This document shows, in pieces, positions 16,748 to 53,367 of a DNA stretch of 64,000 bases (position 1 is the first letter of the stretch; the number at the start of each line of letters is the position of its first letter). A model generated the notes under the pieces. It was not told the origin of the DNA, did no database searches, and saw nothing but the letters and a program-made list of their open reading frames with translations. This DNA is from Lachnospiraceae bacterium (GTDB lineage Bacteria > Bacillota > Clostridia > Lachnospirales > Lachnospiraceae). A program made the position numbers and the translations under genes. The stretch is from NCBI GenBank assembly GCA_963649295.1, contig CAVJHK010000001.1, positions 4,636 through 68,635 of the forward strand, given 5' to 3'.

Positions 16748-18451
16748 ATGGCAAGAAAAAGCAGAAAAAATACGGGCGTTCTTACTGAAACGCCTGTGCA
16801 AGAGAGCAGCTTCTTTTCCACAGCCATCTATGCCCGCTTGTCCATTGAAAACAGCGGCAAGGACGATGACGGCGATTCTATTGCTAACCAAATCAGTTTC
16901 TGTAGGGCATACCTGGAAGAACATAAAGATCTGAAGCTGTATGGAATCTATGAGGACAACGGCGAGAAGGGTACAAATTTTGACCGGCCAGAGTTTCAGA
17001 GAATGATGGATGACATAAGGGGCGGTAAAGTGAAATGTGTCCTTGTTAAGGATTTGAGCCGCTTCGGAAGAGATTATATTGAGGCAGGGGAACTTTTGGA
17101 GAAGATATTTCCCTTTATGGGTATCCGCTTTATTTCCATTACGGACGGTTATGATAGTCTGACTTCTGACGATGCGGAAGGTGCTCTGATGATCCCTCTA
17201 AAAAACATGATCAATGACGTCTATGCAAAGGATATTTCACGGAAGATTATTACATCCTTTAGGGCCAGGCAGGAGAAGGGAGAATTTCTGCCGGCATTTG
17301 CTCCATACGGATATGTGAAGTCAAAGACAGAGGCTTACCGGTATGAGATAGATGAGGTGACGGCTCCTTACGTGAAGATGATTTTTGAGTGGAAAGCTGA
17401 GGGTATTTCCCATAATGAAATCTGCAGAAGGCTCAATGAAATGGGAGCGGTGACACCATCCAGACGAAAAGTTGATCTCGGCATCTGGAGAGCAGAGAAA
17501 TACAAGCATACGGTGTGGTTTGGACGCACTATCATTGATATTCTGAAGAATCCTACCTACACCGGCTGCATTGTTTATGGAAGGATTCCTAAGTCCTTAT
17601 ATGAGGGAATCAAGATGCACCGTGCTCCGGCGGATGAGTGGAGATATGTGCCGGATGCCCATGAGCCAATTATCAGCCAGGAATTGTTCGATAAGGTCCA
17701 GCAGATGTTTGCAGACCGCGCAGAAAAATTCAAGAAGAAAATGGATGAGAATGCTAAACTGAGGGAACTGATTGCAAATCCTCTTAAAGGGAAGATTTAC
17801 TGTGGCGACTGTGGTAAGAGAATGCGGTTTGTAAAGCCTACAGACAAACGGTATCCGATAGATCAGGATCATGCCATTTATGTCTGCGGAGGGTATTTGG
17901 ACAGCGGATACAGCAGATGCTCTAGGCATTCTATCCGGTATCCGCCTGTGGCTGATGCAGTGATGGCAGTGGTAAAAATGCAGACAGAACTTGCCTTAAA
18001 GCATGAACAGCTAATCCGTCAGATGAGAGGTTCTGTGCAGGAGAAGAATCTGATCGATAAGTATGTAGGTCAGTTCAATTATCTGAATCAGGAACTGAAG
18101 AAAATTAATGCCAGAAGAGAAGGCCTGTTTGAAAATTTTGTCGATGGGATTCTCGATGAAAAAGAGTATCAGTTCGCAAAGGAAAAGTATGACGAAGAAG
18201 CTTCTGCTCTTGATAAAAAGCTGAAGAAAAAAAAAAAAAAAAAGAATCAGGTGGACTTCGACAACAAGTGGCTTGCGGCAATGCACGAAGCGGAGAATAC
18301 TGCTGAAATGAATGAAACTCTTACGAAGAGTCTTATCAGCAAGGTCATGATATTTGAGGATAACCGTGTTGAAGTGGAACTGAATTATGCAGAGGATAGG
18401 GACATCTTCCAGAATATCGTAGCTGAAATGGCAGGTGATGATCATGAGTAA
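16748..18451 (+). CDS. large serine recombinase 2
   Basis: IYARLSIENSG; VKDLSRFGRDYIEAG; FPFMGIRFISITDGYDS; Zn-ribbon CGDCGKRM...CGG; coiled-coil tail containing a K7 run. Confidence 0.9.
   Translation: MARKSRKNTGVLTETPVQESSFFSTAIYARLSIENSGKDDDGDSIANQISFCRAYLEEHKDLKLYGIYEDNGEKGTNFDRPEFQRMMDDIRGGKVKCVLVKDLSRFGRDYIEAGELLEKIFPFMGIRFISITDGYDSLTSDDAEGALMIPLKNMINDVYAKDISRKIITSFRARQEKGEFLPAFAPYGYVKSKTEAYRYEIDEVTAPYVKMIFEWKAEGISHNEICRRLNEMGAVTPSRRKVDLGIWRAEKYKHTVWFGRTIIDILKNPTYTGCIVYGRIPKSLYEGIKMHRAPADEWRYVPDAHEPIISQELFDKVQQMFADRAEKFKKKMDENAKLRELIANPLKGKIYCGDCGKRMRFVKPTDKRYPIDQDHAIYVCGGYLDSGYSRCSRHSIRYPPVADAVMAVVKMQTELALKHEQLIRQMRGSVQEKNLIDKYVGQFNYLNQELKKINARREGLFENFVDGILDEKEYQFAKEKYDEEASALDKKLKKKKKKKNQVDFDNKWLAAMHEAENTAEMNETLTKSLISKVMIFEDNRVEVELNYAEDRDIFQNIVAEMAGDDHE
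18227..18243 (+). repeat. A17 homopolymer within the recombinase 2 coding sequence
   Basis: Counted directly: ctgaag + 17 A + gaatcag. It encodes seven consecutive Lys residues. Confidence 0.95.
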
Positions 18452-20063
18452 ATGGGTGATAGGGAAATATATACGTTTGTCGCAGGCTGACCGTGATCTT
18501 ATGAAAAAGGAAAACAAGTCAGAGAGTGAGAGCGTGTCCCACCAGAAGGCGCTGATCCAGAATTTCATCAATGGGAATGCGGAACTGAGCGGATCGGAGC
18601 AGTATGAGTTTTTCGATGACGGTTATACCGGTACTAATTTCGAGCGACCTTCCTTTGAGCGACTGCTGGAAAAGATTAAGAAGGGTGAAATCAATTGTGT
18701 TGTGGTGAAGGACTTCTCGCGATTTGGCAGAAATTATATTGAACTGGGAGATTACCTGGAACGTATATTTCCATTCATGGGAGTGCGTTTTATCTCTATC
18801 AACGACCATTATGACAGCACAGATTACAAAGGAACCACCGGCGGACTTGACGTGGTTATGAAAAATATTGTTTATGATTATTACAGTAAGGATTTGTCGG
18901 TGAAGGTGAAGACAGCCAAGCGGCAGAAGATGAAACAGGGCAAATACCTTGGCGGTCATGTGCCTTACGGATATGTCAGATGTAAGGATGACGGAAACAA
19001 AATAGAACCGGATCCAGAAGCGGCAGCCATTGTCAGAGAAATTTTTGATGAAGCAATTGGAGGAATTCGCCCCACAGAAATCGGCAGGCTGATGAATGAG
19101 CGTGGTTATGAAACACCATCTGCCTATTACCGAAGGATGAACCCAAAGACAAAAAAGTTTGCAGATGCATCGGAATACAGATGTTGGGATATCAATTCCA
19201 TCAGAAGAATCCTTCAGAACAGGGTTTATTATGGCGCCGTGGTAGGACACAAGCGAGAACAGATTAGCGCCTGCAGCAGGCATTCAGTCAAAGTGCCGGA
19301 AGAAGAACAGGTCATTGTTGAAAATATGCATCAGGGAATTGTTACAAAGGAAGAGTTTCAGGCTGCACAGAAAATATTCCGCAGAAGATACGCTACGGAA
19401 GAAAAGAAGATTGAGAAGGATTATCCTCTTTACGGAAAAGTAAAATGCGGAGTCTGTGGCAGGGCGATGGCTTACCGTGCATATGGTTACAGGGGCAGGC
19501 GGTATAAATATTTTATCTGTCCACATGCCAAGAATCAGTTGGAGAACCAGTGCTGCAAACATTACATCCATGAAGAGATGTTGAATGGGATTGTGTGGCA
19601 GGCTGTTAAACAGCTTCTGGCTATGGCGGATATTGCGCAGAAGAAGATTCGGGACAAGGCGGCTGAGGCGAAGAATGACAATTTCATCCTTGCCCAGAAG
19701 CTGGCTGATCTGCAGAAGGACAAGGAAAAATGTGAGTCAGACAGATTTGCAAATGTGGATCTGTTCATGGCAGGAAGCCTGGATAAAGAAATCTACTTGG
19801 ACAGACGGCAGGAACTGAACCGGATGGCAGATGAAATCGAAAAGCGGATAGCTGAAATGGAGCAGAGCCTTAAAGCTGTTGAAACTGCCTCCGATGATGG
19901 CACGGCGGAAGCCCTGGGGAAGATGAAAAAGTTTTCTGGTGCAGAGCAGCTTGATCAGAAGATGGTACATGCACTGATTGACAAGGTACTGGTCACGGAC
20001 CCGGAGCACGTGGAGATCCGGTGGAAGTTTAAGGATGAGGTTGTGAAGTTTATAGAGGAATGA
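18435..20063 (+). CDS. large serine recombinase 3
   Basis: KYIRLSQADRD; VVKDFSRFGRNYIELG; FPFMGVRFISINDHYDS; Zn-ribbon CGVCGRAM...CPH. It overlaps recombinase 2 by 17 nt, and the start could be ATG 18444. Confidence 0.9.
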   Translation: MMIMSKWVIGKYIRLSQADRDLMKKENKSESESVSHQKALIQNFINGNAELSGSEQYEFFDDGYTGTNFERPSFERLLEKIKKGEINCVVVKDFSRFGRNYIELGDYLERIFPFMGVRFISINDHYDSTDYKGTTGGLDVVMKNIVYDYYSKDLSVKVKTAKRQKMKQGKYLGGHVPYGYVRCKDDGNKIEPDPEAAAIVREIFDEAIGGIRPTEIGRLMNERGYETPSAYYRRMNPKTKKFADASEYRCWDINSIRRILQNRVYYGAVVGHKREQISACSRHSVKVPEEEQVIVENMHQGIVTKEEFQAAQKIFRRRYATEEKKIEKDYPLYGKVKCGVCGRAMAYRAYGYRGRRYKYFICPHAKNQLENQCCKHYIHEEMLNGIVWQAVKQLLAMADIAQKKIRDKAAEAKNDNFILAQKLADLQKDKEKCESDRFANVDLFMAGSLDKEIYLDRRQELNRMADEIEKRIAEMEQSLKAVETASDDGTAEALGKMKKFSGAEQLDQKMVHALIDKVLVTDPEHVEIRWKFKDEVVKFIEE

Positions 20064-21246: not shown

Positions 21247-21717
21247 ATGGCAAAGTTAGTTTTCTTACGTCGAACTGAAAAAGAGATACAGGTATTTGGT
21301 GGGGATGTCTATATTGATATAGATGGAAAAAATGTTGGTATCTTGTCAAGAGCAAACCAAGAGTACAATATTCAGGCGGGACAGCATACTATTAAAATGT
21401 ATAAGTCACATACCTATGATACGTTTATTGGCTTTGCCGAATCTACAATTACGGTTGAAGAAAATGAGCAGCTTATGGTGCGGTATGCCGCACCTATGGC
21501 TGCGAATCAGCCTGGAAATCTTATTATCTCCCCATATGATCCTTCAAAAGAAAGCGAAATTCTTAGGGCGCGGGAGAATACCATTCAACGGGATTTTGCT
21601 GCAGATGAACATAGAAAACAAGAACAAAACAATAAATATAATACCGGAGTTATGATATTTATTGCTTTCATAATTATAGATGCAATCATATGGGCTGTTT
21701 GGATGGCATCAATATAA
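21247..21717 (+). CDS. tail-anchored membrane protein, paralog A
   Basis: 156 aa with a beta-rich N-domain (MAKLVFLRRTEKEIQVFGGDVYIDIDGKNVG...), a charged linker and a single C-terminal TM. It is clearly paralogous to the next gene. Confidence 0.65.
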   Translation: MAKLVFLRRTEKEIQVFGGDVYIDIDGKNVGILSRANQEYNIQAGQHTIKMYKSHTYDTFIGFAESTITVEENEQLMVRYAAPMAANQPGNLIISPYDPSKESEILRARENTIQRDFAADEHRKQEQNNKYNTGVMIFIAFIIIDAIIWAVWMASI

Positions 21718-21736: not shown

Positions 21737-22210
21737 ATGGCAAAGCTAGTATTTTTACAGAGAACACAAAAGGAAATTGAAATTTTTGGCGGTGAAGTGT
21801 TTTTTGACATTGACGGAAAGAATGTGGGAAAACTTACTACCGTTAATCAGACTATTGAGCTGCCTGCAGGTGAGCATATGGTCAAGATGTATAAGTCACA
21901 TACATTTGATACTTTCATAGGTTTTGCAGAGCAAACTATTTCTTTATCAGAGAATGAATCGCTCATGGTTAAGTATTCGGCGCCTATGATGGTGAGTCAG
22001 CCTGGTAATATGGTTATTTCTGAGTATTCAGAACAGAAACAAGTAGAGGCTGTGAAAGCACGCGAGGAAATGATTCAACGCGACTTTGTTAATGAACAAA
22101 ATAAAAGAAAAGAAGCTGATGAAAAATACAAAAATGGAGTATGGATTGTCATTGGTATTGCTGTTGCTATTGGAATTATTTATGGCATAATGATGGCATC
22201 TATGATGTGA
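21737..22210 (+). CDS. tail-anchored membrane protein, paralog B
   Basis: ATG 21737 follows GAGAGG. MAKLVFLQRTQKEIEIFGGEVFFDIDGKNVG... has the same architecture as 21247-21717. Confidence 0.65.
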   Translation: MAKLVFLQRTQKEIEIFGGEVFFDIDGKNVGKLTTVNQTIELPAGEHMVKMYKSHTFDTFIGFAEQTISLSENESLMVKYSAPMMVSQPGNMVISEYSEQKQVEAVKAREEMIQRDFVNEQNKRKEADEKYKNGVWIVIGIAVAIGIIYGIMMASMM

Positions 22211-23478: not shown

Positions 23479-25302
23479 TTGACATACGCTGATGAATGTC
23501 ACCATGCAGCTGCGGAAACATACAAAAAAATTATAGGATATTTTGAGCCGGAGTTTTTGCTTGGGCTTACGGCAACACCGGAGCGACTTGATAATCAGGA
23601 CGTATTTGAATTGTTTGACCACAATGTTCCGTATGAATTGCGACTTAGAGATGCAATTGCAAATGATTTGGTCGTTCCTTTTAAATATTATGGTATACGG
23701 GATGAGCTGATTGACTATGGTTTATCACAAACGGAAGAGCGTAAAATGATTGCGCAGCTTGCAAATGCTGATCATTGCGACTTTGTTGCCGCTCAAATTG
23801 AAAAATACCGCCCACAGGGAAAATTAAAGGCGCTTGCATTTTGCCGCAATATTACTCATGCGAGGATGATGGCGGAGGCGCTCGGAGAAAAATATAAAAC
23901 GGCTTATCTTACGGGGAAAAATGATATCGGCGAACGTGTCCGAGCATATAATGACCTGCAAAGCGATTCGGAAGCACTTGAAATTTTGTTTTCTGTAGAC
24001 ATTTTGAATGAGGGTGTTGATATTCCAGGCGTTAACATGGTGCTTTTTTTGAGACCGACGGAATCTACCACAATTTTTATTCAGCAACTTGGACGCGGAC
24101 TTCGTAAGTATACAAATAAGACGTTTGTAACGGTGCTTGATTTTATCGGAAACAGTTATAAAAGAAGCGTACAGATTGCATTTGCCTTAGGGTCACTATC
24201 GGAAAATTTTGTTATGGAAAAACGCCTTATGGCATCGCTTGTAAAAGATGATTTTAAAGCACTTGGACTTACGGAATACGGCGTTGAAATTCATATTGAC
24301 GATTTAAGCAAAGAGGAAATTCTTGAATATATTGATAAAGAAAACTTTAATGCGATAAAGTATTTAAAACAGGATTATTTTAATTTTAAAAAGTATATCG
24401 GAGCTGAATTTTACCCGAAGCACGTTGATTATATTAATAATGATTGCGCACCGGATCTTATTCGTTTTATGAGCGTAAAAACAGAAGGTAAGAAGAATTG
24501 CAGTTATTATAATTTCCTTAAAGGCATAAATGAAGAAAATCTTCCGATTTTTACTGAAAGTCAGGTCAATTTTATAAATTATTTGTCGGGATTTTTGCCT
24601 CTTGTAAGGCAGCATGAATATTATATTGTGAAATTATTGCTTACAGGAAGCAAAACATTTGATGAAACGGCGAAATATCTTAGAGAAAATATAAAGGATT
24701 TTAAAAATGAAGAGCTTGAGCATGCGCTTGAATTTTTGAAAATAGTAAAAAAGGACGGCATTGTGCTTACTCTTGACGTAAAAATTGATGATCAGTTTTT
24801 GGAATATACGGAAGATTTAATCGAATATGGACTTATACGATATTCGGTTGATAATGGTGAAGAAACAGGATTCAAGCTTTGGCAAAATTACCGCATGGAT
24901 CAGGTTCAGCTGAAACTGCTTAAAAATCCTGCACATAACCAGGTTGGAACATATTATTATGATGATTTTGTCGTTATATTTGCATCCCTTAAAAAGGATT
25001 TAGACGAGGCTGATAAATTAAATTATAAGGATAAATTTTTGCAGGCGGACATTTTTCAATGGGAATCGATGACGAATCTTCCTGGTTCCGATTTGCAAAA
25101 ACTGAAAAATAGTATATTTGCATATGTTTTTATCAGAAAGGTTAATTCGGAAAACGGGCTTGTGCTTCCGTTTACATATGTAGGAAAGGGAAAGTTGACA
25201 AATCCCCGTAAAACCGATGCCGGCAACGGAACATATCTTTTTGATATTCATATGGAAAATAGTTTGCCTGACTATTTGCAATACGATTTTGGCTTGACTT
25301 AA
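23479..25302 (+). pseudogene. SF2 DEAH-type helicase with DUF3427-like C-terminal domain, 5-prime truncated
   Basis: Translation starts at motif II (ADECHH), followed by motif III (GLTATPER), the helicase C domain (DILNEGVDIPGVN, QQLGRGLR) and a long C-terminal domain. There is no Walker A / motif I, and an in-frame stop lies at 23458-23460. Confidence 0.65.
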
Positions 25303-28117: not shown

Positions 28118-28783
28118 ATGTCAAAGAAACAAAACAAAAAATCCGTTGTTAAGGAATTTAAGGAATTTATTTCAAGAGGAAACGTTGTGGATATGGCAGT
28201 CGGTGTTATTATCGGTAGTGCGTTCACCGCAATTGTCAATTCGCTTGTAAAGGATATTTTTACGCCGCTTATCGGAATAATAATCGGAGGAATAAATTTT
28301 GCGAGCCTTTCGATTAAGATTCCCGATACAACGCTTGAAGACGGAACGGTTATCATACAGGGCGCAGAGCTTACTTACGGAAACTTTATTCAAAGCATAA
28401 TTACGTTTCTTCTTACCGCTTTGTGCGTATTTATTTTTGTTAAGGCGATAAATGCGATAAGAAACGGATCTTTGTTTAAAAAAATAAAGGATGTGACGGA
28501 CGGAGAACCCGCACCCGCTCCCGCTCCCGAGCCGCCCAAGCCCTCGAATGAAGAAGTGCTTCTTACGGAAATCAGGGATTTGCTTAAAAATCAAAATGAA
28601 ATGACACAAAAGCCCAAGAATTTCTTCAACAGAAACAGAAATTTTGACAAGAATAACAAGGACAACAACAGGAATAACAAAGACGGTAATAAGGATAGTA
28701 AAGACCGCAATAAGGACGATAATAAAGATACGATAAAACACGTTGGAGGCACTTCCGAAACCGATACAAATAAGACTGAATAA
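28118..28783 (+). CDS. mscL: large-conductance mechanosensitive channel MscL with extended C-terminal tail
   Basis: EFKEFISRGNVVDMAVGVIIGSAFTAIVNSLVKDIFTPLIG is the MscL signature. ATG 28118 follows AAGGAG. The product is 221 aa. Confidence 0.9.
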   Translation: MSKKQNKKSVVKEFKEFISRGNVVDMAVGVIIGSAFTAIVNSLVKDIFTPLIGIIIGGINFASLSIKIPDTTLEDGTVIIQGAELTYGNFIQSIITFLLTALCVFIFVKAINAIRNGSLFKKIKDVTDGEPAPAPAPEPPKPSNEEVLLTEIRDLLKNQNEMTQKPKNFFNRNRNFDKNNKDNNRNNKDGNKDSKDRNKDDNKDTIKHVGGTSETDTNKTE

Positions 28784-28794
28784 AACGGCGAATA

Positions 28795-28842
28795 AAAACG
28801 ACCGCCGTTAGCTTCTCAAAAACTTAGGGTGGTCGTTTTTTT
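28795..28842 (+). terminator. rho-independent terminator after mscL
   Basis: aaaacgaccgcc ... ggtggtcgtttt stem followed by a T-run. Confidence 0.7.
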
Positions 28843-28943
28843 GATTATTTTATAATTGGGACGGCCGTCTATCGGCAACACCTCTTTTGTGATAATATGC
28901 TAACATATATACATATAAATCAACCACAACTCTCATATTCTAT

Positions 28944-29969
28944 ATGCAAAATCAAAAAGAAAAACTCTTAGGATTTTCAAAAAAGAATATTTTGCTTACG
29001 GAGCTTGCTGCGCTCTTTCGTATCGATTATTCGGATACAAAAGAGCTTTATTCTCTCGTAACGGAACTTGGAAATCAGGGCTTAATAAAGCCTGTTTCGG
29101 CATCGGGAAAAATTGCAAATCTTACGTATCCCATGTACAAAAAATATAAGATTTGCGCAGCGGATGAAGAGTATGCGGCGGATATTAAAAAAATTCTGTC
29201 CTTACATCCCACAATCACAAAAAGCGGATATTTAAGCAGAAATCCGAAAATATACAGGGAAAACGAAAATTTTCTTGCTATGCTTTCAAAATATTTTTTT
29301 ACAAACCGGCATGCCGAATATATTTCAAGAAAAGAGCGTTCATATGAGATATTCGGAAAAGAAAAAGAGCTCGACAATCCTACTTTCAAACGTCTTTTAA
29401 ATAATCTCAAAATCACCGATTCCGACCTTATGTTTTATGATACGCCGGAATATTGTTTTCATGACTTCATTCCCGAGAGAAAAGAGCATATGACGCTCCT
29501 TATATGCGAAAATAAGGATATTTGGTTTAATATAAGGCGCCGTATGTTTGAAGAAAATATGAGAATGCTGTTCGGCACAAAAATAGACGGCGTTGTGTAC
29601 GGGGCAGGAAACAAGGTTTCCGAAAAGTCTGGTGCGCTTATACAGTATGTAAGGTTTATGGGAAAACGCACGGCAGATTTTTTGTATTGGGGGGACATAG
29701 ACCGAGAAGGCTTTGACATATTTAAGCGTACACGGGAAGTAAATGCAGGGCTTATGATCAAGCTTTTTGTTCCCGGATACAAAAAAATGATAAAAAAAGC
29801 AGCGGGAAAAGCGCAGGAAGACGCTCCGTCATCAAAAGATAAGGGAAATTATGATGAAATATTTGCGGAATTTTCCGAGCACGAAAGAGAATTTTTAAGC
29901 GACATTATGAAAAATAACAAACTTATTCCTCAGGAAATTATTTCCTATACGGATTTGAGCGAGGTGTGA
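28944..29969 (+). CDS. Toprim/DUF2220-like nuclease candidate (JetD/MksG-like)
   Basis: 341 aa with an N-terminal winged-helix-like region. The C-terminal half carries [11 protein letters not shown] (Toprim-type Glu), [15 protein letters not shown] (DxD) and a terminal LIPQEII. This is the pattern I associate with DUF2220. Confidence 0.6.
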
Positions 29970-29973
29970 AAAG

Positions 29974-31521
29974 GTGCTGCGGCAGGATGTAAAAGAGATG
30001 TTTTCGGGCTTCCAAAACCGAATGAAATTTATAGATATTGTGAGAAGCATTACGGTAACAAGTTATCCGGATGACATTAAAGAAATGTTTCACGGAGATT
30101 ATGATATTTTAAATAATCTGGTTGTGGCAGTTTTGCTTTTTATTAAGGAGCGGACGCTTGGGACGATGGAAAGCTGTACGCTTCGCGATATCGAAGGCTT
30201 TTTGGACAATATAGCAGAGATTGTGCCGGAGGGGTACTTGCTTGACACAGGGCGGCTTTCGTCTTTTATTGTCATAAATGTGCTTCAAAACAACGGAAAG
30301 ACGATAGAATACGATACATATTATGCGGATGCGGGAATTTTTAAGAAAATGCCCGTCCGTCTCATAAACGAAGAAAAGGGAACATATCATTTGACTGATG
30401 ATGCGTTTGATTTTTTGTATCGTTCAAAGGAAATAGAATCGGAACTTGATTATTCCGTAACGCGTTTTAAGATGCAGGAATATATGAAGCGCAAAAATTA
30501 TTCGGAGGCCTTGTCGCAAAGCCGCGAGCTTGTGGCAAGACTCAGAAACATGAGTCACGGAATGGATGACTTTATTTTGCGATGCCGTGAAAATATTGCA
30601 AAGATAAGTGTGGACGAATACGAAAGGATCGTCGGACAATACAGAAATTTGCTTATCGACGAGCAAAAGGAGCTGGAAGAAATTCAAAAAACGGCTGCGG
30701 CATCGGCAGAAATAATAAGAAACGCGCTGGACGCGGGTGCGGATACAACAGAGGCACGCAAGAATCTTGTCGATCTTTCGGAAATCAACAAAAATCTCGA
30801 TATGACAATTTATGAACAGCGTGCTCTTATAAATGCGCGTAATCTTGTTTCGGAATCATATAGGGAGATGCTCAAAGACAGCTTCATCATAAAAAATTAT
30901 GAACGCATGAATTTTGAAAAGGATATTATGAGAAAGCTGCAAAAATCGGGTGACGCACTCGGAGACGCCGTGCTGAAGCTGTTTTTGCCTTTGCTTACGC
31001 CAAGCTTTAAAAATATGTTCAATATCGAAAATTTTTATGCGGAGTCGGGACCGATTACGGATGAGGCAGAAGAATCAGGCGTCGAAATCGGAGATACGGA
31101 CGAATCGGAAGATGAATTCATAAAGGAAAGAAACAAAATATATACGGAAATATGTGCAGCTTTTTTTGAATTTATGTGTCATGAAAAGGATTTTTATGTA
31201 AAGGACTTTGTAAAATCGCTTTCTGTGGATAATTTGATGTGCTGGAATAAAGACAATATTCTTTCAAACACGCTGCTTACAATTTTTCAGGCGAAGGAAA
31301 TAGATGTCGAAAGCATAAAAGAGGACAAAGACTTAATTTTGACGGAGCCTCTCGGAGAGTTTGATCTTCTTTGGATAATGAAAAATATGCGGGAAGATTG
31401 TCTTGCTATGAAAAAAATCGAATTTGAAACGTCGGATGAAACATTTAAATTCAGCATAAGCGACGGCGAAAATATTGCAACGACGGAAATGACAAATTTT
31501 TTGGTTAAGGTGGAACGATGA
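29974..31521 (+). CDS. kleisin-sized helical protein (JetA/MksF-like candidate)
   Basis: 515 aa. It starts 4 nt after the previous stop and contains [17 protein letters not shown], a central coiled segment and an acidic linker ([16 protein letters not shown]). The assignment rests on size, position and weak pattern similarity. Confidence 0.4.
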
Positions 31522-32222
31522 ATACCAATACGGTAAAGCTTTTTCATGAGCTTATGAAAAAAGGAAGAATAGACAGAAACGACAATGCCGCACTATGGAT
31601 TGCGGCAGAAGACGAAGAGGTGCGTGACGAACTTGATTTTATGGGTTCGGAGCTCGGCTTTGAAATTGTAAACGCGCCGAACCGCATTTATCTTGTTCCG
31701 ACGGAAAATAACGACCTATTTTTAAAGAACAACATAGATTACCGTGCGGATATAAAGGCGGGGAATGATGCAAGGGTGAGAGATTTGTATCTTTTAAATT
31801 ATCTCGCCGTATTTGTTCTTTTTATATTTTTTAAGGGTGAAGGAAACGATATCAGGGTGAGAGACTTTATCACGAAAGAGGATTTGATAAAGGAATTTAC
31901 GGAACATACTGAGAATGTCGCAAAAAAAGGCATTGACGGCGAAGAAAAAAAGGACGATTATTCGGAAAATTTTGTGACACTTGCAAACGACTGGCTTTCG
32001 AAAAAGGAAGGAACTGTACTTAGCCGCAAAACCGATGAGCGTTACGGAGTCATAAACAAATTATTGTTAAAATTCAGGGCGGATGATTTGTTTACGGAAG
32101 AATCGGGAATAATAAAGCCTACAAAGAAAACCTGCGATTTGATGCCTTATGTTCTCAGAAAGGACAGAGTGCAGACAATAAACGATTGGATTGGAGAAAC
32201 ATGCGATGCCGCAGATAAGTAA
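31518..32222 (+). CDS. small acidic winged-helix-like subunit (JetB/MksE-like candidate)
   Basis: 234 aa, joined to the upstream gene by an ATGA start/stop overlap. The pattern [37 protein letters not shown] resembles DUF4194-type proteins. Confidence 0.45.
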
Positions 32223-35200
32223 GATTAGGATAGTGAATTTTTATTACAATAACGGCAAGAGATTTATTGCGGATGAGCTTTATGATCTCGAAAACGAAAA
32301 AGGAGAGGCGTTAAATACTCTTTTTAATCTTAACAACGGCGGCGGAAAGACTGTCCTTGTGCAGCTTATGATGCAGCCCGTAAATCCGAGGGCAATGGCG
32401 GGCGGAAGAAGAATAGAGGATTATTTTGAGAGATCCGCTGATCATTCGTTTGTGCTGATTGAGTGGATTATGGATGAAAGCCGCGAGAGGCTTATGACCG
32501 GAATTGCGATTGCGGCAAGCAGTGTAAATTCGTCTGATGACAATGAACGGGGAAACAGAATAAGATATTACACCTTTAAGTCGGTTTATGAGGATTATTC
32601 TCCCTATTCGATTGCAAATTTGGAGCTTTCAAAAAACGAGAACGGACGATTTGTTCCCGCGGGCTTTGAATTTGTAAAGGATAAGGGAAAACAGAGTAAA
32701 GGAGCGCTTTTATGTTATTCCTCGGATGATGCGAGGCTGTGGGAAAAGGAGCTTTCGGATTATGGAATTTTGCGCTCTGAATGGGAAAACGTGATAGAAA
32801 CGTTAAACAAGGACGAAGGCGGTTTAAATGAGTATTTTGGGGATGCAAAGACGTCGGATAAGCTGATTTCAAAGTTTTTTATTCCGGCAATCGAAAAAAA
32901 GATAAAAAGTGTGGGAAATAATACATCGGATGGGTCGCTTGGCACCATGCTTATTTCGTATGCAAAAAAGATTACCGAAAAAGAAAGTGTTATGCGGGAG
33001 CGTGACATAAACCGCGAGCTGCTTACGGAGCTTAGGGGGACTTTAGATGAGAGCAGGGCGCTTTTTGCGGCAGCGGACGCATTTGCTGTAAATACCGGAA
33101 AAGTGCGCTCCTTTAAGGCTGCGATAAGTAAGAGAACAGCTGAAATTGAGTCAGAAAAAGCAAAATTCGAAGCAAAAATCAATTCTTTAAACGAAAGGAT
33201 TCATCATATTGCGCATGAAGAAAAATCAAAGGATTTTTATATTGCGTCAGATAATCTTGAAATTGCGTCAGAGGCATATAAAGCGTCAAAAGAAAAATAT
33301 GACGATTGTGATGAGTTATTAAAAAATCTCCGCAAGTCTGAGGATATTTTAAATGCCGCAAAGATTTGTGGAGAAATTCGTGAAAAGGAAGCGGAAATCA
33401 AGGAACTAAAAAAACTGATCGAAGAAAAGGAAAATAATTCGGAAGATGCGGAACGTATTGCCGCACTTAAATTTTCCGTGCTTTTGAAGGCAAAAGAAAA
33501 AGAGGAAAAGGAAAGTGCCGCACTTAATTATAAAAAGAATGAGCTTGATACCGTAAATGCGGAATATGAGAAGAACAGGCACAAAGAGCATGACGTAAAA
33601 GAAATTTTGGAAAAAGCAAAAGAAGAAAGTCTAAAAGCGGAAATTTCTTTAAAAGAAACAAAGAAAACAACGGACAATTTGGTTCAAAAGTTTTCCTTAA
33701 ACGTTAACAGGCGTCTTGACGGTTTTTATGAGATAGACGAAATCGAAGAGGAAAGGGCAAATGCCGCACTTGAAAAAGAGACACTTGAAAAAGAAAAGAG
33801 GCATTTGAGCAATGAGCTTGAGAGGATAGAACGCCTAAAAGAGGAATTGCCCGCAAGAATATCTGATAATATGCTTGAAAGCCAAAGAAAGGACGATGAA
33901 AAAAGGAATATCGAACAGGAAATCAAGCATTTTGACGTGGCATATGAGAAAATAATCGGAATTTGCAATAAATATAATTTTGAGCCGGAAGCCGTATGGA
34001 ACGGAAATTTATGTCTTGCAGCGGAAACGGAACTCAAAAATTCCCGCGCAAAATACAATAAGGCGGAAAAAGACAAGGCAGCTTTAAATGATATGCTTAC
34101 GGCGGCAAAGAACGGATGCCTTCATATTCTTCCCGAAATTATGGAATATATAAGGTCGACGGGAATTTATTGCATTACGGGTGAAGATTATTTATGCAGG
34201 CAAAGCGCCGCACAAAACATAACAAAAGAAAGACTTGATAAAATACTTGACGAATATCCTGAAATCGCATATTCGGTACTTTTTGATACGGAAAAGGATT
34301 TGAAACGCTTTTTGGAGGCGGGGAACAGTGATTGGACCCAAAGCTGTATTCCGCTTTTTACCATGGAGCGGGTGAATTTGATTTTAAAAGGAGAATTCGA
34401 TCGCGCAGAATTTTTTGCATGCTGCGACAGGGAATATTTTGCTGCCCCTGAACGCTTTTCGGAAAAAAAGGAAGAAGAAATAAGTGAGCTTGAAGGTAAA
34501 ATAAAAAGATATGCCGGGCATATAAGTGAATGTGAAAAGGATATAAAAGAGATTCAGGGCTTTTGTTATGACAAAAATTGGAAGAAAACACGAGGAACTG
34601 AGCTCTTATCTTTGGAAGCAAGCATAGAGTGGTTTGCGGACGAAATAAAAAGACTTGAAGCGGAGCTTGACGGCGCAAAAAAACAATACAAAGTGACCAA
34701 AAGATTATATGAAGAAGCAGGCGAAAAAATTGCAAATTCGGAAAAACGTCTTGAAGGCATAGCAGATGTTATTTTGAATATCGATTGTGAAAATAATCTG
34801 TTTGACACTTGGCAAAAGTGTTCAGGAAATGTAAAAAATGCCGAAAACGCATTTGAAATGGCTTCTGATGCCGTAAAGAAATCGGAAAAGCAGCTTGACG
34901 ATTTAAATATTGAGATATCGGAAATAAACCGGATTTTATTGGGCGTAAAGGAAATTCTCAAAAAAGTATCGGGGGCAAAGCCTGTCAAAAACGAAAAAAT
35001 TACAGACGGCGAAACAAATGAACTGTATTCACGTTATCTTACTTTATGCGAAAATCTGTCAAAGGATCTTGAGGCGCTTAACGAAAAATTAAATATCGTA
35101 AACAAAAGAAAATCGGATGCGGAGCGAGAGCTTAAAAATTATAAGAACTGCCAAAGGGAAGAATATGAAAATATACAGTTTTCTGCGGAACGGATGGAAA

Positions 35201-36600
35201 AGATAAAAGATGATATCATACGCGCGGAAGGGAATTTGAGAGGCTTGCGTGAAGAATTTGATAAATGTAAAAGTGAATTTATCACGTGCACCGAAAAGAA
35301 AAAGGGAATTTTGGAAAATCTTCCGGAATTCGGCGGAGAGCCTCTTACCAAAAATGAGATAGGGGATAATTTTAAAGGAAGAATTTTGGAAGCGAAGAAC
35401 GAAATAAATAATGTTGCGAATAAGGAAAAACGCCTTGATTCAGAAAATACTCAGCTTTCAAAGGTTGAGATGGGAGTGAATTTTTCACTTGAAACGGAAG
35501 TGCCTGAAAATGAAGGTGAACTGCCGGTGACTGTGCTTTCACGGGACGTGGTCGCAGAATGGAATGATTTGAAGCGTGATTTTGACAATTCAAAGGATAA
35601 TTATTTTTCGGCAAAAGACAAATTAATGATGATGCTTCGTGATACAAAAGCAAAGTTTGACGGACGTGTGCTTATTGAAATTACGACAAAGCTTTCGGAT
35701 ATTTTGAAGCTGTTTGATTGTTCGGGTGTAAAAAAAGACCGCTTAAAGAGCGCTTCGGAAGGTATCCTTGCGATGACGGATTCCGTCAGCAAAATAAACA
35801 GCCGGATAGAGACGGATTTAAAGGAAATCGAAAATGATTTTAATGATATCATAAATCAATGCATGAACCAGGGACGAAGAATGTATCACGATCTGCGTGC
35901 GATTGCGATGAGCTCCAAAGCGCAGGTGTTTGCAAACAAGCCGCAGGTTCAGATGTTAAAGCTTGATTTGCCCGAAGAAAACGCTCTTTCCGAAGAAGCG
36001 GGGAGAACGGCAATAGAGGAGGAGCTTACAAGCGGTGCAAACGAAATAAGAGACATGCTTATAAAAGGCGCAGAGGAATGTGAAATTTTGAAACGCGCAA
36101 ATAAAATTGTGTCAAGTGAACGGCTTTTGCACAAATATATAAAGAAGGACTCGATTGCGGTTAAAGTTTATAAAATCGACATGACATCGGAAAACTCAGG
36201 CTACAAGCGTTGGGAGGAGGCTCTCACGGAAAACTCGGGCGCAGAAAAGTTTGTAGTGTTTTTTGCGGTTGTGCTTACTCTTATGAATTATACAAGAGCC
36301 GAAGCGGGAGTTGTAAATAAAAGAGCAAAGAGTGTGCTTGTCCTGGACAATCCGTTCGGAAAAATCACGTCGGCGCACCTCTTAAAGCCTATGTTTGATA
36401 TAGCGCGTCACTTTAACGTGCAACTTATCTGCCTTTCCGATATCAACAAGAGTGACGTCACAAATTGCTTTGAATGTGTGATAAAGCTTGTGATCAAATC
36501 GCAAAGTCTTTCGAATTTTGAAATAATGACACATGCGGGAAACGAAATGATAGAACACGGATTTTATAAGGTTATGAACGGGCAGATGAGTTTGTTTTGA
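32206..36600 (+). CDS. SMC-like coiled-coil ABC-type ATPase (JetC/MksB/MukB-like candidate)
   Basis: 1,464 aa from ATG 32206, with GGAGAAA upstream and a 17-nt overlap with the previous gene. It has a P-loop NLNNGGGKT, very long E/K-rich coiled coils with a central non-coiled block, a signature-like SGAEKF and a Walker B VLVLDNPFG near the C-terminus. Confidence 0.7.
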   Translation: MPQISKIRIVNFYYNNGKRFIADELYDLENEKGEALNTLFNLNNGGGKTVLVQLMMQPVNPRAMAGGRRIEDYFERSADHSFVLIEWIMDESRERLMTGIAIAASSVNSSDDNERGNRIRYYTFKSVYEDYSPYSIANLELSKNENGRFVPAGFEFVKDKGKQSKGALLCYSSDDARLWEKELSDYGILRSEWENVIETLNKDEGGLNEYFGDAKTSDKLISKFFIPAIEKKIKSVGNNTSDGSLGTMLISYAKKITEKESVMRERDINRELLTELRGTLDESRALFAAADAFAVNTGKVRSFKAAISKRTAEIESEKAKFEAKINSLNERIHHIAHEEKSKDFYIASDNLEIASEAYKASKEKYDDCDELLKNLRKSEDILNAAKICGEIREKEAEIKELKKLIEEKENNSEDAERIAALKFSVLLKAKEKEEKESAALNYKKNELDTVNAEYEKNRHKEHDVKEILEKAKEESLKAEISLKETKKTTDNLVQKFSLNVNRRLDGFYEIDEIEEERANAALEKETLEKEKRHLSNELERIERLKEELPARISDNMLESQRKDDEKRNIEQEIKHFDVAYEKIIGICNKYNFEPEAVWNGNLCLAAETELKNSRAKYNKAEKDKAALNDMLTAAKNGCLHILPEIMEYIRSTGIYCITGEDYLCRQSAAQNITKERLDKILDEYPEIAYSVLFDTEKDLKRFLEAGNSDWTQSCIPLFTMERVNLILKGEFDRAEFFACCDREYFAAPERFSEKKEEEISELEGKIKRYAGHISECEKDIKEIQGFCYDKNWKKTRGTELLSLEASIEWFADEIKRLEAELDGAKKQYKVTKRLYEEAGEKIANSEKRLEGIADVILNIDCENNLFDTWQKCSGNVKNAENAFEMASDAVKKSEKQLDDLNIEISEINRILLGVKEILKKVSGAKPVKNEKITDGETNELYSRYLTLCENLSKDLEALNEKLNIVNKRKSDAERELKNYKNCQREEYENIQFSAERMEKIKDDIIRAEGNLRGLREEFDKCKSEFITCTEKKKGILENLPEFGGEPLTKNEIGDNFKGRILEAKNEINNVANKEKRLDSENTQLSKVEMGVNFSLETEVPENEGELPVTVLSRDVVAEWNDLKRDFDNSKDNYFSAKDKLMMMLRDTKAKFDGRVLIEITTKLSDILKLFDCSGVKKDRLKSASEGILAMTDSVSKINSRIETDLKEIENDFNDIINQCMNQGRRMYHDLRAIAMSSKAQVFANKPQVQMLKLDLPEENALSEEAGRTAIEEELTSGANEIRDMLIKGAEECEILKRANKIVSSERLLHKYIKKDSIAVKVYKIDMTSENSGYKRWEEALTENSGAEKFVVFFAVVLTLMNYTRAEAGVVNKRAKSVLVLDNPFGKITSAHLLKPMFDIARHFNVQLICLSDINKSDVTNCFECVIKLVIKSQSLSNFEIMTHAGNEMIEHGFYKVMNGQMSLF

Positions 36601-36674
36601 GCGGAAGAAAAACGTGTCAGTAGTTTGAACATAAAAATTACAAGGAAGGAGAATAATATGATATCGATAAAAAA

Positions 36675-36821
36675 ATGTTGGTAGGAATAGCCATTACTAT
36701 ATTTGGGTGTGCAGTTTCGGCGTGTGATGCATTGGTTACGTATTCTATGGTAGGATTGCTGATTTCGTTGTATGGTCTTATTATTACCTGCCGCGGATAT
36801 TGGTTTAAGGAAGACAAATGA
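36675..36821 (+). CDS. small hydrophobic protein (48 aa, two predicted TM helices)
   Basis: MLVGIAITIFGCAVSACDALVTYSMVGLLISLYGLIITCRGYWFKEDK. It is below the ORF-track cutoff. A strong RBS and ATG (36643-36660) lie upstream, but out of frame by one base of an A7 run. Confidence 0.35.
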   Translation: MLVGIAITIFGCAVSACDALVTYSMVGLLISLYGLIITCRGYWFKEDK

Positions 36822-36829
36822 ATTGCGAT

Positions 36830-36871
36830 AAAAAAGAGATGTGAAGCATCAGCCGCACATCTCTTTTTTTC
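36830..36871. terminator. bidirectional rho-independent terminator
   Basis: A-run, then the stem agagatgtg / cacatctct with a 12-nt loop, then a T7 run. It lies between convergent genes. Confidence 0.8.
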
Positions 36872-39889: not shown

Positions 39890-40984
39890 ATGACGGAAGA
39901 AATGCTCGGAATAAAAAAAACAGCGGAAAATTTGGGGATGTCCGTAAGACGTGTCAATCAATTATGTAATGAGGGCAAAATAAAAGGTGCCAGAAAAATC
40001 GGTGGTGTCTGGAAGATTCCCGAAGATTCGGAGGATTTAAAAAAAATTGCCGAAAAAAGAAAAATAAAACATAATCAATTAATGCCTCTTCTTCCGTGTC
40101 CTGTCGGAATTACCTCTTACAGGGAAGTTTCCGCAGAGTGCTATTATGTTGATAAAACGCTTATGATAAAGGAACTTATAGATTCTCACAATAAAGTGAC
40201 TTTGTTTACGCGTCCGCGCAGATTCGGCAAAACCCTCACCATGGATATGATTAAAACTTATTTTGAGAAGACGGATGAAGATGTGTCCGGTTATTTTTCA
40301 AATCGTGCAATTTGGTCGTGCAGTGACTCCTATAAGACATATATGGGCGCGTATCCGGTGATTTTTATTTCATTTAAAGATGCACATCAGAATACCTGGC
40401 GCGATATGTACGAAAGCCTTTTGATGTCAATCCGCGGCGAATACAAAAGGCATATGAATGTTCTTGAAAGTAAGCTTGTTTCGGAAATAGACAAGGCTTT
40501 TTTTAAAAGAATGCTGAGCGGAAAGGTGTCGGAAGTGGAAGCACAGGCGTCTCTCGGACAATTGTCGCATATTTTGTCGGATTCCTATGATTCAAGGGTG
40601 ATTGTGATTATTGACGAATATGATACGCCTATTCAGCAGGGATACGACAACGGTTATTATAACGAAGTCATTTCTTTTATGAGAAATCTGTTTTCTGCGG
40701 TGCTGAAGGATAACGCAGCCCTTGAATTCGGAATATTGACGGGAATTCTTCGTGTTGCAAAGGAAAGCTTATTCAGCGGGTTGAATAATTTGGTCGTCAA
40801 TACGATTTTGGATGAAAGGTATTCGGAGTATTTTGGTTTCACATTGGCGGAAGTTAGGGAAATGGCCGCATATTACGGAAAACCCGAAAAAATAGAGGAA
40901 ATATCCGATTGGTATGACGGATACAGGTTCGGTAAATCGGAAATATTTAATCCCTGGTCGGTTATAGGAGCGGCAATGACATGA
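39890..40984 (+). CDS. HTH + AAA-ATPase-like domain protein (N-terminal part of a split gene)
   Basis: N-terminal HTH of the same type as the 20523 product. TRPRRFGKTLTMDMI is a Walker A-like motif of the predicted AAA-ATPase (DUF1703-associated) family. The product ends shortly after NPWSV. Confidence 0.6.
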   Translation: MTEEMLGIKKTAENLGMSVRRVNQLCNEGKIKGARKIGGVWKIPEDSEDLKKIAEKRKIKHNQLMPLLPCPVGITSYREVSAECYYVDKTLMIKELIDSHNKVTLFTRPRRFGKTLTMDMIKTYFEKTDEDVSGYFSNRAIWSCSDSYKTYMGAYPVIFISFKDAHQNTWRDMYESLLMSIRGEYKRHMNVLESKLVSEIDKAFFKRMLSGKVSEVEAQASLGQLSHILSDSYDSRVIVIIDEYDTPIQQGYDNGYYNEVISFMRNLFSAVLKDNAALEFGILTGILRVAKESLFSGLNNLVVNTILDERYSEYFGFTLAEVREMAAYYGKPEKIEEISDWYDGYRFGKSEIFNPWSVIGAAMT

Positions 40985-41715
40985 TTTTGGATGTGATAAA
41001 AGACGGAAAGCCCGAAATACAGGATTCACTTACCCGTCTTTTGCAAGGCTCGCATGTTAAGGCTTTTATTGATACCGACATCATATATCCGGAAATTAAG
41101 TCATCCGAAGATGCGATTTACAGTTTTTTGATGATGACGGGATATCTTAAAATATCCGAAATTGTGACAGATTTTGATGATAATCCGGTATGCAATCTTT
41201 TGATTCCGAACAAAGAAATAAAAATGATTTTCAAAAAAGAAATTCTTGATAATTTGTCTCAAACGATGAATCAATCGGTTATCAGGAACTTTCAGTTAGC
41301 TCTTAAAACAAACAACAAAGAAGAACTTCAAAAAACGATACGCGAATATTTGATTATGACGACAAGCTATTTTGACACGGCAAAGGAAAGCTTTTATCAC
41401 GGAATTATGCTTGGTCTTTTGGCAATTATGTCGGATGACTATCGGATTATGTCAAACAGAGAAGCAGGAGAAGGACGATTTGACATTTTGATGACTCCCG
41501 TTTCAAAAACAAACCCCGGAATTGTTATGGAATTTAAGGTGGGCGGCAATGCCGACGAAAAAGAATTGGAAAAACTGGCGGAGATTGCGATAAAGCAGAT
41601 CCGGGATAAGAAATACGCTACCGTATTTAAGACGGACGAAATAGCGGATGTCCGCGCATACGGAATTGCTTTTTGCAAAAAAAAGGCGGTTGTTAAAACG
41701 ATACGATTGTGGTAA
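40981..41715 (+). CDS. PD-(D/E)XK nuclease-like C-terminal part of the split gene
   Basis: YHGIMLGLL....NREAGEGRFDILM....IVMEFKV is the typical PD-(D/E)XK (DUF1703-type) core. An ATGA overlap joins it to the upstream ORF. Confidence 0.6.
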   Translation: MILDVIKDGKPEIQDSLTRLLQGSHVKAFIDTDIIYPEIKSSEDAIYSFLMMTGYLKISEIVTDFDDNPVCNLLIPNKEIKMIFKKEILDNLSQTMNQSVIRNFQLALKTNNKEELQKTIREYLIMTTSYFDTAKESFYHGIMLGLLAIMSDDYRIMSNREAGEGRFDILMTPVSKTNPGIVMEFKVGGNADEKELEKLAEIAIKQIRDKKYATVFKTDEIADVRAYGIAFCKKKAVVKTIRLW

Positions 41716-48926: not shown

Positions 48927-49529
48927 TCAATTCTTCGAATCCTTATTTTTTAAAAAGGGAAGAAGTGCCGGTGCCTTTATGATGAGCGAAGCGCCGATCA
49001 TTGTGAGGATCATTTCGGGGAGCATGTATGCGCCGTTGTAGATGAGCGAATAAAGGAGCGGATTGTCTGTTGTAAAGCCTTCCCAAAGCTCACCGACCGA
49101 CTGCCAGATGATGACACCGCTCAAATAGTGGCATAAGAATCTCAAAGTGACGGCGATTGCGATTCCTGCGATCCAGCCGAGCACATCGTTGTTTTTGATG
49201 CCCTTGCGGAAGATTCCCGCAAGTCCGAGTACGGTGAAAGCAAGGATATAATCCATTAGGATGCAGGCGATAAGCATGCCCGGCGTGAGTCCCCAGCCGA
49301 AAAGTCCGTCGATTACGCCCTGCATAAATTGCAAAAGCGAATAGGTGAACGATACAAGAAGTCCCGGCTTCACACCGTGTCTTATCGAAAAGATGACAAT
49401 CGGCACCATAGAGAATAACGTAATCGATCCGCCGACAGGGAGCTTGAACACCCTGACATAGCTCAGTGCGGTTGCGAGCGCAATCATGAGCGCGCCTTCA
49501 ACCAGAATAAAAGTTTTTTTGTCTTGCAT
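48927..49529 (-). CDS. thiT: thiamine ECF-transporter S component ThiT
   Basis: Six-TM protein with the FKLPVGGSITLFSMVPIVIFSIRHG pattern. A TPP riboswitch lies directly upstream. Confidence 0.8.
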   Translation of the reverse strand: MQDKKTFILVEGALMIALATALSYVRVFKLPVGGSITLFSMVPIVIFSIRHGVKPGLLVSFTYSLLQFMQGVIDGLFGWGLTPGMLIACILMDYILAFTVLGLAGIFRKGIKNNDVLGWIAGIAIAVTLRFLCHYLSGVIIWQSVGELWEGFTTDNPLLYSLIYNGAYMLPEMILTMIGASLIIKAPALLPFLKNKDSKN

Positions 49530-49535
49530 AAAAAA

Positions 49536-49662
49536 ATCCTCCTTACACATATGTACGGGAGGTATGAAATAAAGCTTCCTTACGCCGGCATTATCCGGGT
49601 CAAGTAATAAGGGTCGGCGGAAAAATTCCGCCTCTCAGCGTTTTAGCGCCCCTAGCACATAT
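49536..49662 (-). ncRNA. TPP (THI-box) riboswitch with SD-sequestering platform
   Basis: The minus strand reads ..CUAGGGGCGC..GCUGAGAGGCGG..CCGCCGACCC..GACCCGGAUAAUGCCGGCGUAAGGAAGC.. and matches the conserved CUGAGA / ACCC / GGAUAAUGCC.GCG motifs. A downstream CCUCCC can pair with the AGGAGG SD. Confidence 0.9.
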
Positions 49663-49951
49663 GCGATATAAAATTATTTTTGACAGAAATTTGATTTTAA
49701 GAAAATCCGGTCATATGTGACCGATGGCCTAAAAAACATGACCGATTAGCCAAAACAAAAATCTTGTCGGGAGTGAATATACCACAAATTGTTTTGTTGT
49801 CAAGAGATATTTTTCTTTTTTCTTGCGTAATTATGTGATTTGTACTAAAATCGTTACTATTCACTTGGACATTCGCTTAAAAAAATATATCAACAATAAA
49901 ATATATCAATAACAAAGTATATCAATAATACGAAAGCAGAGGAAATATAAA

Positions 49952-53262: not shown

Positions 53263-53367
53263 CATAGCCTCGGTCTTGCGAAGCAATGCACTCGAACCGT
53301 GTCAGGTCAGGAATGAAGCAGCACTAAGAGTCGCCTCTTGTTTGTCGCAAGGTAGCCGGGGCTTTTT
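53263..53367 (+). ncRNA. ffs: signal recognition particle RNA (small/4.5S type)
   Basis: Conserved domain IV sequence GUCAGGUCAGGAAUGAAGCAGC at 53300-53322. The flanks (gcctcggtcttgcga / tcgcaaggtagccgggg) pair to form the long helix, and the RNA ends in a T-run. Confidence 0.8.

Follow-up and report, generated by a model that had tools for sequence, protein, structure and literature searches.

Which system is encoded by the four genes at 28944-36600 of the Lachnospiraceae bacterium DNA analysed here, a 64-kb stretch of contig CAVJHK010000001.1 that we call the window, and what is it likely to do? An earlier note, made from the sequence alone, recognised in these genes a Wadjet-like architecture (SMC-like ATPase, kleisin, winged-helix subunit and Toprim nuclease) with the nuclease gene in first place, and offered a divergent or undescribed Wadjet subtype or an unrelated SMC-nuclease system as explanations. 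Our analysis points to a more familiar answer: the locus is very probably an intact chromosomal Wadjet type III operon (JetD-JetA-JetB-JetC), an accessory defence against small circular DNA, that is, plasmids. The four open reading frames (ORFs) are co-directional and tightly coupled, with coordinates and junctions as the note had given them:

28944..29969, forward strand: jetD (gene 1), 341 amino acids (aa)
29974..31521, forward strand: jetA (gene 2), 515 aa, GTG start
31518..32222, forward strand: jetB (gene 3), 234 aa
32206..36600, forward strand: jetC (gene 4), 1464 aa

The true start of jetC is the ATG at 32206 and not an upstream TTG, because the homologues begin with MPQI.

The classification is carried by profile searches, in which all four proteins gave significant, full-length matches to the type III models of PADLOC: JetD to JetD3 PDLC00592 (1.7e-77, residues 3-340), JetA to JetA3 PDLC00562 (1.1e-158, residues 3-514), JetB to JetB3 PDLC00576 (9.3e-69, residues 2-229) and JetC to JetC3 PDLC00583 (6.4e-109, residues 1-1436). 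The Wadjet-like architecture is thereby borne out part by part, and since the models that match already exist, neither an undescribed subtype nor an unrelated SMC-nuclease system is called for. The type I JetD models of PADLOC reach the window JetD at best with 1.8e-6 over about 50 residues, and type II gives at most a marginal match (JetC2, 1e-4). Above the Pfam gathering thresholds stand JetD_C in gene 1 (8.6e-9) and DUF6063/PF19539 in gene 3 (3.7e-26); genes 2 and 4 are not covered by any Pfam model, and an NCBIfam scan of the four proteins returned sub-threshold coiled-coil matches to SMC and Rad50 and nothing else. Product names at NCBI run along the same lines, relatives of gene 1 being called ‘Wadjet anti-phage system protein JetD domain-containing protein’ and those of gene 3 ‘DUF6063 family protein’. 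The JetA3 family is established and moderately sized: 1.84 billion representatives contain 380 of its clusters at 50% identity. The cassette is thus a species-level member of the described, automatically detectable Wadjet type III, and the locus should be labelled as such in annotation; the standard tool PADLOC already classifies it so.

The gene order, described as permuted, turned out to be the ordinary one. A JetA profile scan of GTDB, with one genome per species, gave 65 related loci, nearly all of them in rumen or gut Clostridia (Butyrivibrio, Pseudobutyrivibrio, Oribacterium, Ruminococcus, Acutalibacteraceae), and tblastn with the four window proteins found the order D-A-B-C at every one of the 65, as far as the contigs reach. 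The same order holds in four RefSeq megaplasmid cassettes from C. perfringens, B. mycoides, Pontibacillus and B. cereus (L066, L067, L068, L081), where JetD comes first, the second protein has about 505-550 aa, the third is a DUF6063 protein and the fourth has about 1400-1700 aa; the third gene is named ‘DUF6063 family protein’ by RefSeq in all four, and PADLOC types two of them, L066 and L067 from C. perfringens and B. mycoides, as III. Doron and colleagues are said to have drawn the type III operon as D-A-B-C in 2018, with the Bacillus thuringiensis operon reportedly as the founding example. Because the literature that we searched does not state the type III order in words, we take it empirically from these 69 loci. 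Wadjet types are defined by sequence similarity and operon organisation (PMC10586767), and the presence of D-A-B-C in every type III cassette examined therefore marks it as the normal type III order, with no sign of a new subtype; the A-B-C-D order that the earlier note called canonical is correct for types I and II and does not apply to type III. With the Bacillus, Pontibacillus and C. perfringens cassettes the window cassette shares its order, its protein sizes (about 340, 515, 235 and 1460 aa), its DUF6063 KITE subunit and a D-N-P-F motif in JetC, and it differs from them by sequence divergence only; its host is represented by a metagenome-assembled genome (MAG) from the rumen/gut Clostridia and not by a Bacillus.

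What do the single proteins say about function? In JetD the candidate catalytic residues are the Toprim glutamate E189 (LLICENKD) and the pair D251-x-D253 (GDIDREG). An alignment of 14 sequences that includes Bacillus and Pontibacillus keeps E189, G250-D251-x-D253, P329-Q330-E331, E131-R132-S133 and E140-K141 invariant, E189 and D251/D253 are also invariant in an alignment of 34 sequences, and the Toprim Glu, DxD and PQE motifs recur across the 68 loci scanned. All of the protein motifs that had been quoted for the four genes are in fact present, and invariant residues of the family alignments are among them. An AlphaFold2 model of JetD built from the 34-sequence alignment has a mean pLDDT (predicted local distance difference test) of 84.5, and its top Foldseek matches are C. 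glutamicum MksG (8b7f_A, E 4e-5), P. aeruginosa JetD (7til_B, E 1.2e-4) and topoisomerase VI-A (9o7o_A, E 2.2e-4), all three at a probability of at least 0.99 and with template modelling (TM) scores of only about 0.3, which are low because the two domains are placed differently relative to each other. JetD is, on this evidence, a Toprim/CAP nuclease effector whose modelled fold is that of JetD, MksG and Topo VI-A and which retains the acidic residues for catalysis. It is 21-32% identical to its plasmid-borne counterparts in B. mycoides, Pontibacillus and C. perfringens. As an aside, Liu et al. (10.1101/2022.10.04.510915) describe E298A of B. thuringiensis JetD as the equivalent of E248A in E. 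coli JetD, a numbering that misfits type III JetD (339-373 aa, Toprim Glu at about 190-220; L067, L081); the mismatch may stem from another annotated start or from a longer protein, and nothing here relies on it.

JetB is a KITE subunit (DUF6063), since its AlphaFold2 model, of moderate quality (pLDDT 65), contains two H-H-H-E-E winged-helix units and the top Foldseek matches are the JetB chains of E. coli (8as8_C) and P. aeruginosa (8dk1_E/F), followed by MukE, Nse1/3 and ScpB. It is a single KITE of 234 aa with two winged-helix domains, in agreement with the size of about 235-255 aa that is characteristic of type III JetB. JetA is a putative kleisin, as suggested by the PADLOC JetA3 model and by its place in the operon, and an acidic linker at about residues 357-382 fits this role. 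The window protein is at most 69% identical to the JetA of any species representative in the 65-locus scan, and searches of Pfam, NCBIfam and PDB sequences gave JetA no relative, a PDB profile search being empty as well.

JetC has the layout of heads, coiled coil and hinge expected of an SMC. The conservation and composition profile divides it into an N-terminal head (about 1-230), two arms (about 260-620 and 760-1280) that are E/K-rich, Pro/Gly-poor and poorly conserved, a central hinge-like block (about 600-760) that is better conserved than the arms, and a C-terminal head (about 1290-1464), with conserved head ends. In the family alignments, G47 and K48 of the Walker A motif N-L-N-N-G-G-G-K48-T are invariant, as are S1344-G1345 of the signature S1344-G-A-E-K and all of D, N, P and F in the Walker B motif VLVLD1381-N1382-P-F (36346-36357, residues 1381-1384). 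The catalytic Glu that directly follows the Walker B Asp in canonical SMC and ABC proteins is absent, N1382 standing in its place. The head motifs are atypical, as had been remarked, yet this is a family-wide trait of type III and not a peculiarity of the locus; being common to all type III members, D-N-P-F does not exclude the window protein from the type. An hhalign comparison of JetC with E. coli MukB, weak in itself (probability 19%, E 0.0012), sets SGAEK on STGEA and VLVLD-N on LLFLD-E. The last pair of MukB we take to be D1406-E1407, which would put JetC N1382 at the position of the catalytic Glu. No mention of the Walker B Asn of type III JetC was found in the literature searched.

Set beside the known systems, the cassette has the same four functional parts as Wadjet type I (E. 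coli GF4-3 and P. aeruginosa PA14 JetABCD, C. glutamicum MksBEFG): its JetD fold resembles 8b7f and 7til, its JetB fold 8as8 and 8dk1, the Toprim Glu and the DxD are conserved, and an anti-plasmid role is presumed for the window cassette as well. Type I differs in its A-B-C-D order, in a shorter JetC with a hydrolytic Walker B Glu (E1022 in E. coli; 10.1101/2022.10.04.510915) where the window JetC has Asn, and type III reportedly has no hinge channel (PMC12647877); by phmmer and hmmsearch no sequence similarity is detectable between the window proteins and type I. Type II (Neobacillus vireti JetABCD) likewise restricts plasmids with an SMC complex and a Toprim nuclease, and it resembles the window cassette in its long coiled coils and channel-less hinge (10.1101/2025.03.10.642339; PMC12647877), whereas its order is A-B-C-D and its JetB is a tandem KITE of 388 aa with four winged-helix domains, against a single KITE of 234 aa with two. 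MukBEF and MksBEF share the architecture of SMC-like ATPase, kleisin and KITE, with MukE among the structural matches of JetB and the MukB signature and Walker B aligning weakly with JetC; in contrast, they have no nuclease, serve chromosome maintenance and carry D-E in Walker B, while the window cassette is accessory and includes JetD.

How would such a cassette act? By extension from types I and II, a JetA2B4C4 dimer of motors would load on DNA and extrude loops at the expense of ATP; if the DNA is a small circle, the two motors would meet once extrusion is complete, and the stalled complex would present bent DNA to a JetD dimer, which would then cut it. A large chromosome and linear DNA would escape cleavage. 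For types I and II this extrusion-cleavage scheme has been demonstrated (10.1101/2022.10.04.510915; 10.1101/2025.03.10.642339), and the second of these studies proposes it for type III as well. The B. thuringiensis operon, the type III representative, blocks the establishment of plasmids in B. subtilis (10.1101/2022.10.04.510915), and the same biological role, anti-plasmid defence, is therefore expected of the window cassette.

Several points weigh against this reading. To our knowledge, type III comes without a solved structure or biochemistry. PDB searches with the single JetD and JetC sequences and with the JetD and JetA family profiles gave no meaningful matches. For JetA, hhalign of the family against E. 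coli MukF returned nothing, and the match to Pfam MukF_M has an E of only 0.079. At the 5′ end of the operon, direct reading finds no obvious Shine-Dalgarno sequence upstream of jetD, and a promoter scan gave no forward-strand match in 28843..28943. As for JetC, D-N-P-F occurs in all 56 related loci that include a JetC C-terminus, among them the Bacillus, Pontibacillus and C. perfringens plasmid cassettes, and D-E in none. In type I the E1022Q change in E. coli JetC abolishes both ATP hydrolysis and DNA cleavage (10.1101/2022.10.04.510915), which makes the transfer of loop extrusion to type III an assumption.

The last two points lead to the alternative that survives best, namely that type III is still a defence but recognises DNA without extrusion, JetC working as a slow ATP-binding switch or clamp that licenses JetD, as proposed for LmuB of Lamassu. 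An Asn at the catalytic-Glu position means that the ATPase cycle may be slower or otherwise organised, and the universal D-N-P-F, together with the hhalign register that sets N1382 on MukB E1407, speaks for such a switch. There is also a precedent in LmuB, a defence-associated SMC/Rad50-like ATPase in which the Walker B Glu is naturally replaced by Gln and whose ATP hydrolysis is believed to be slight or absent (PMC10586767), and the missing hinge channel of type III (PMC12647877) would suit it too. LmuB matches JetC weakly in PADLOC, over the coiled coil and C-terminal head (about 2e-5); it differs in being about 650 aa long with short coiled coils, in having LmuA and LmuC as partners and no kleisin/KITE/Toprim set, and in sensing DNA ends and not circles. 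In its long arms of coiled coil, its KITE subunit and its architecture as a whole, however, the window cassette agrees with loop-extruding SMCs, another conserved acidic residue such as E86, E192 or E204 could be the catalytic base, the hhalign probability is just 19%, and the authors of the type II study expect extrusion-cleavage in type III too (10.1101/2025.03.10.642339). We therefore regard a switch of this kind as unlikely. If the Asn does remove the base, type III could conceivably be a plasmid sensor built on a natural ‘EQ-like’ SMC, with ATP hydrolysis that is very slow or differently catalysed, a proposal we hold to be doubtful; were it true, it would challenge the assumed conservation of extrusion-cleavage across Wadjet types. 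Type III is the least studied of the Wadjet types, and its universal Walker B Asp-Asn is a small, testable lead for specialists.

Is the cassette a fixed part of the genome, as its housekeeping neighbours might suggest, or an accessory one? The intact window sequence was met again at 99.6-99.97% identity in the MAG GCA_963619445.1 and in the Logan assembly of SRR13434646, and two further contigs of sister strains, L072 (SRR13434666) and L073 (GCA_963624245.1), lack most of the cassette:

29744..36041, no strand: segment of 6,298 bp deleted in the sister strains

Both contigs carry the same deletion junction GGGAAGTAAA|CGAAATAAG (L072 4356-4374; L073 3721-3739), their MscL protein is identical to that of the window and their flanks are 98-99.6% identical. 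What is left is an in-frame ORF of 452 aa (P0122) that joins JetD(1-266) to the C-terminal ~186 aa of JetC. No direct repeat was found at the breakpoints, where the exact microhomology is AAA only and an imperfect match covers 13 of 19 positions. The Wadjet locus is accordingly polymorphic within the species. Two other cassettes look degraded, either by real decay or by artefacts of MAG assembly: in L047 (CAZJAS010000155.1, 912-1873) JetA breaks off at about residue 241 and is fused to the C-terminus of JetC, and in L020 (12236-12724) JetC ends after about 150 aa and unrelated ORFs come next.

The surroundings of the cassette change as well. None of the 65 related loci has the flanks of the window. 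In the JGI metagenome contig L077, an IS66 transposase lies directly upstream of jetD and a prophage end about 4 kb upstream of the cassette; within that prophage end, at 4687-4872, we noted a 61-aa protein with a precomputed Pfam match to AcrIC5, an anti-CRISPR family. The neighbours in L075 are a Tn916-type integrase/Xis, a resolvase and an AAA-ATPase_like/PDDEXK_9 gene, and those in L079 are SIR2, a Schlafen-like ATPase, SbcCD and an OLD-family nuclease, with a full-length DUF3427 type IV restriction enzyme (1051 aa, PLDc_2-ResIII-Helicase_C-DUF3427) directly 5′ of jetD. The sister-strain deletion, the unshared flanks and the mobile or defence neighbours elsewhere make the cassette accessory and dispensable. 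The host strain, of the rumen/gut Clostridia, is probably refractory to small plasmids, and the sister strains with the 6.3-kb deletion may not be; a difference of this kind would matter for genetic tractability and for the plasmid ecology of the community. The repeated natural loss of the cassette is another small and testable lead for specialists in SMC complexes and defence.

Its company might also suggest that the cassette targets mainly phages or other linear invaders rather than plasmids. NCBI names JetD a ‘Wadjet anti-phage system protein’, homologous cassettes share genomic islands with anti-phage genes (SIR2, OLD, a type IV restriction enzyme), and prophages lie nearby, including in this window. 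The product name, however, goes back to the discovery screen rather than to an assay, the same genome harbours a prophage 9 kb from the cassette, and Wadjet had no effect on the phages tried and is specific for circular DNA (10.1101/2022.10.04.510915), so that we find an anti-phage role improbable. Still less probable is that the cassette, though present, is silent or in decay and is being lost as in the sister strains: relatives show no fewer than three apparent decay events (the JetD::JetC fusion, the JetA-JetC deletion in L047 and the truncated JetC in L020), the promoter scan was empty and jetD has no clear Shine-Dalgarno, but all four ORFs are full length against the family models and keep every invariant residue, and the intact cassette was seen again at 99.97% identity in a second sample. 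A core-genome condensin of the MukBEF/MksBEF type that organises the chromosome, the reading that the earlier note had reserved for a cassette present in all relatives, is scarcely credible despite the SMC-kleisin-KITE composition, the housekeeping genes in immediate flank and the weak Walker B similarity to MukB, for the cassette encodes a Toprim nuclease whose catalytic residues are conserved, was lost by deletion in sister strains whose flanks are near-identical, occurs also on megaplasmids and stands in a different genomic context in every related species.

Returning to the Wadjet type III operon itself, its layout is that of one insulated, translationally coupled transcription unit. The jetD/jetA junction is a 4-nt gap (AAAG), jetA and jetB overlap in ATGA, jetB and jetC overlap by 17 nt, and the Shine-Dalgarno-like sequences GAGGTG, AAGGTGGA and GGAGAA precede jetA, jetB and jetC respectively. 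Around the genes lie the following elements:

28795..28842, forward strand: intrinsic terminator of the upstream mscL gene and 5′ insulator of the cassette; folding free energy (dG) -19.8 kcal/mol, z -3.1, then a T7 run
28843..28943, forward strand: 5′ intergenic region, presumed promoter location; candidate extended -10 (TG-T-GATAAT) at about 28888-28896, read by eye
36675..36821, forward strand: small hydrophobic ORF of 48 aa, read from the sequence; its reality is uncertain
36830..36871, both strands: bidirectional intrinsic terminator; dG -20.5 (forward) and -22.7 (reverse) kcal/mol, z -4.8 and -6.5; flanked on either side by A/T runs

The two bracketing hairpins, already described as strong, were assessed by direct RNA folding, and both fold strongly with T-runs after them; a simple terminator scan had missed them because their loops exceed its 8-nt limit. 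The hairpin at 36830..36871 is common to the jet cassette on the forward strand and the convergent P-type ATPase gene on the reverse strand. The flanking genes, too, are confirmed: thiamin pyrophosphokinase and MscL (PF01741, 8.9e-42) upstream and a P-type cation ATPase downstream, and housekeeping genes make up both the immediate neighbours of the cassette and the following 20 kb. MscL (28118-28783) carries an extension of about 80 residues at its C-terminus, past the channel domain, consisting of a Pro/Ala-rich segment and then a low-complexity Lys/Asn/Asp-rich tail (...NRNFDKNNKDNNRNNKDGNKDSKDRNKDDNKD...).

The 230 nt from the jetC stop to the terminator contain a good Shine-Dalgarno AAGGAAGGAG, which precedes an ORF of 8 codons (ATG 36659) that crosses an A7 tract into the 48-aa ORF (ATG 36675, -1 frame). 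The ORFs at 36659-36821 could be a small membrane protein, made with or without slippage, or noise; the 48-aa ORF has no Pfam or PADLOC match and no tblastn match in the 65 related loci. A conserved fifth gene of the cassette was considered and rejected, as no homologue of this ORF turned up in other cassettes and each cassette has different neighbours downstream.

The rest of the window begins with a prophage at 1-20100, which ends about 9 kb upstream of the cassette. Its genes include a ClpP-like prohead protease (561-1472), the major capsid protein (1486-2679), the tape measure protein (5762-8449) and a CHAP-domain lysin (13772-14584), and at its end stand three tandem large ORFs (15121-16737, 16748-18451 and 18435-20063), the first and third of which are confirmed as large serine recombinases. 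With 0.47-0.50, the G+C of the prophage is higher than that of the following 20-37 kb (0.33-0.41). That the cassette could be cargo of this prophage was rejected, since genes for a flavin reductase, an HMA protein, thiamin pyrophosphokinase and mscL intervene and are kept by the sister strains.

Further elements flank the cassette at some distance. At 23479-25302, 3.6 kb upstream, lies an N-terminally truncated type IV methyl-directed restriction enzyme (ResIII tail, Helicase_C, DUF3427) that covers positions 341-913 of the 953 in PADLOC mREase_IV; the full-length DUF3427 homologue beside jetD in L079 suggests a recurring association with Wadjet. In the low-G+C stretch between the prophage and this truncated gene, two tandem paralogues (21247-21717 and 21737-22210), about 60% identical by eye, encode proteins of about 155 aa that both start with MAKLVFL.RT.KEI..FGG and carry a transmembrane helix at the C-terminus; searches of Pfam and PADLOC matched neither. 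Downstream, at 39890-41715, an ORF with HTH_17 and AAA-ATPase_like domains (364 aa) overlaps a PDDEXK_9 ORF (244 aa) by 4 nt, and the AAA-ATPase_like and PDDEXK_9 parts form a single 518-aa protein in other genomes, for example beside the Wadjet cassette of L075. The segment 39717-41741 is absent from the sister contig L073, which makes it a second strain-variable element, beside the P-type ATPase. The 64-kb window holds no tRNA gene. Two other RNA elements were found: a thiamine pyrophosphate (TPP) riboswitch (67.5 bits) at 49560-49663 on the reverse strand, upstream of a YuaJ-type thiamine transporter gene (48927-49550, reverse strand), and a small signal recognition particle (SRP) RNA (62 bits) at 53267-53365 on the forward strand, between an AP-endonuclease-like gene and genes for teichoic-acid synthesis.

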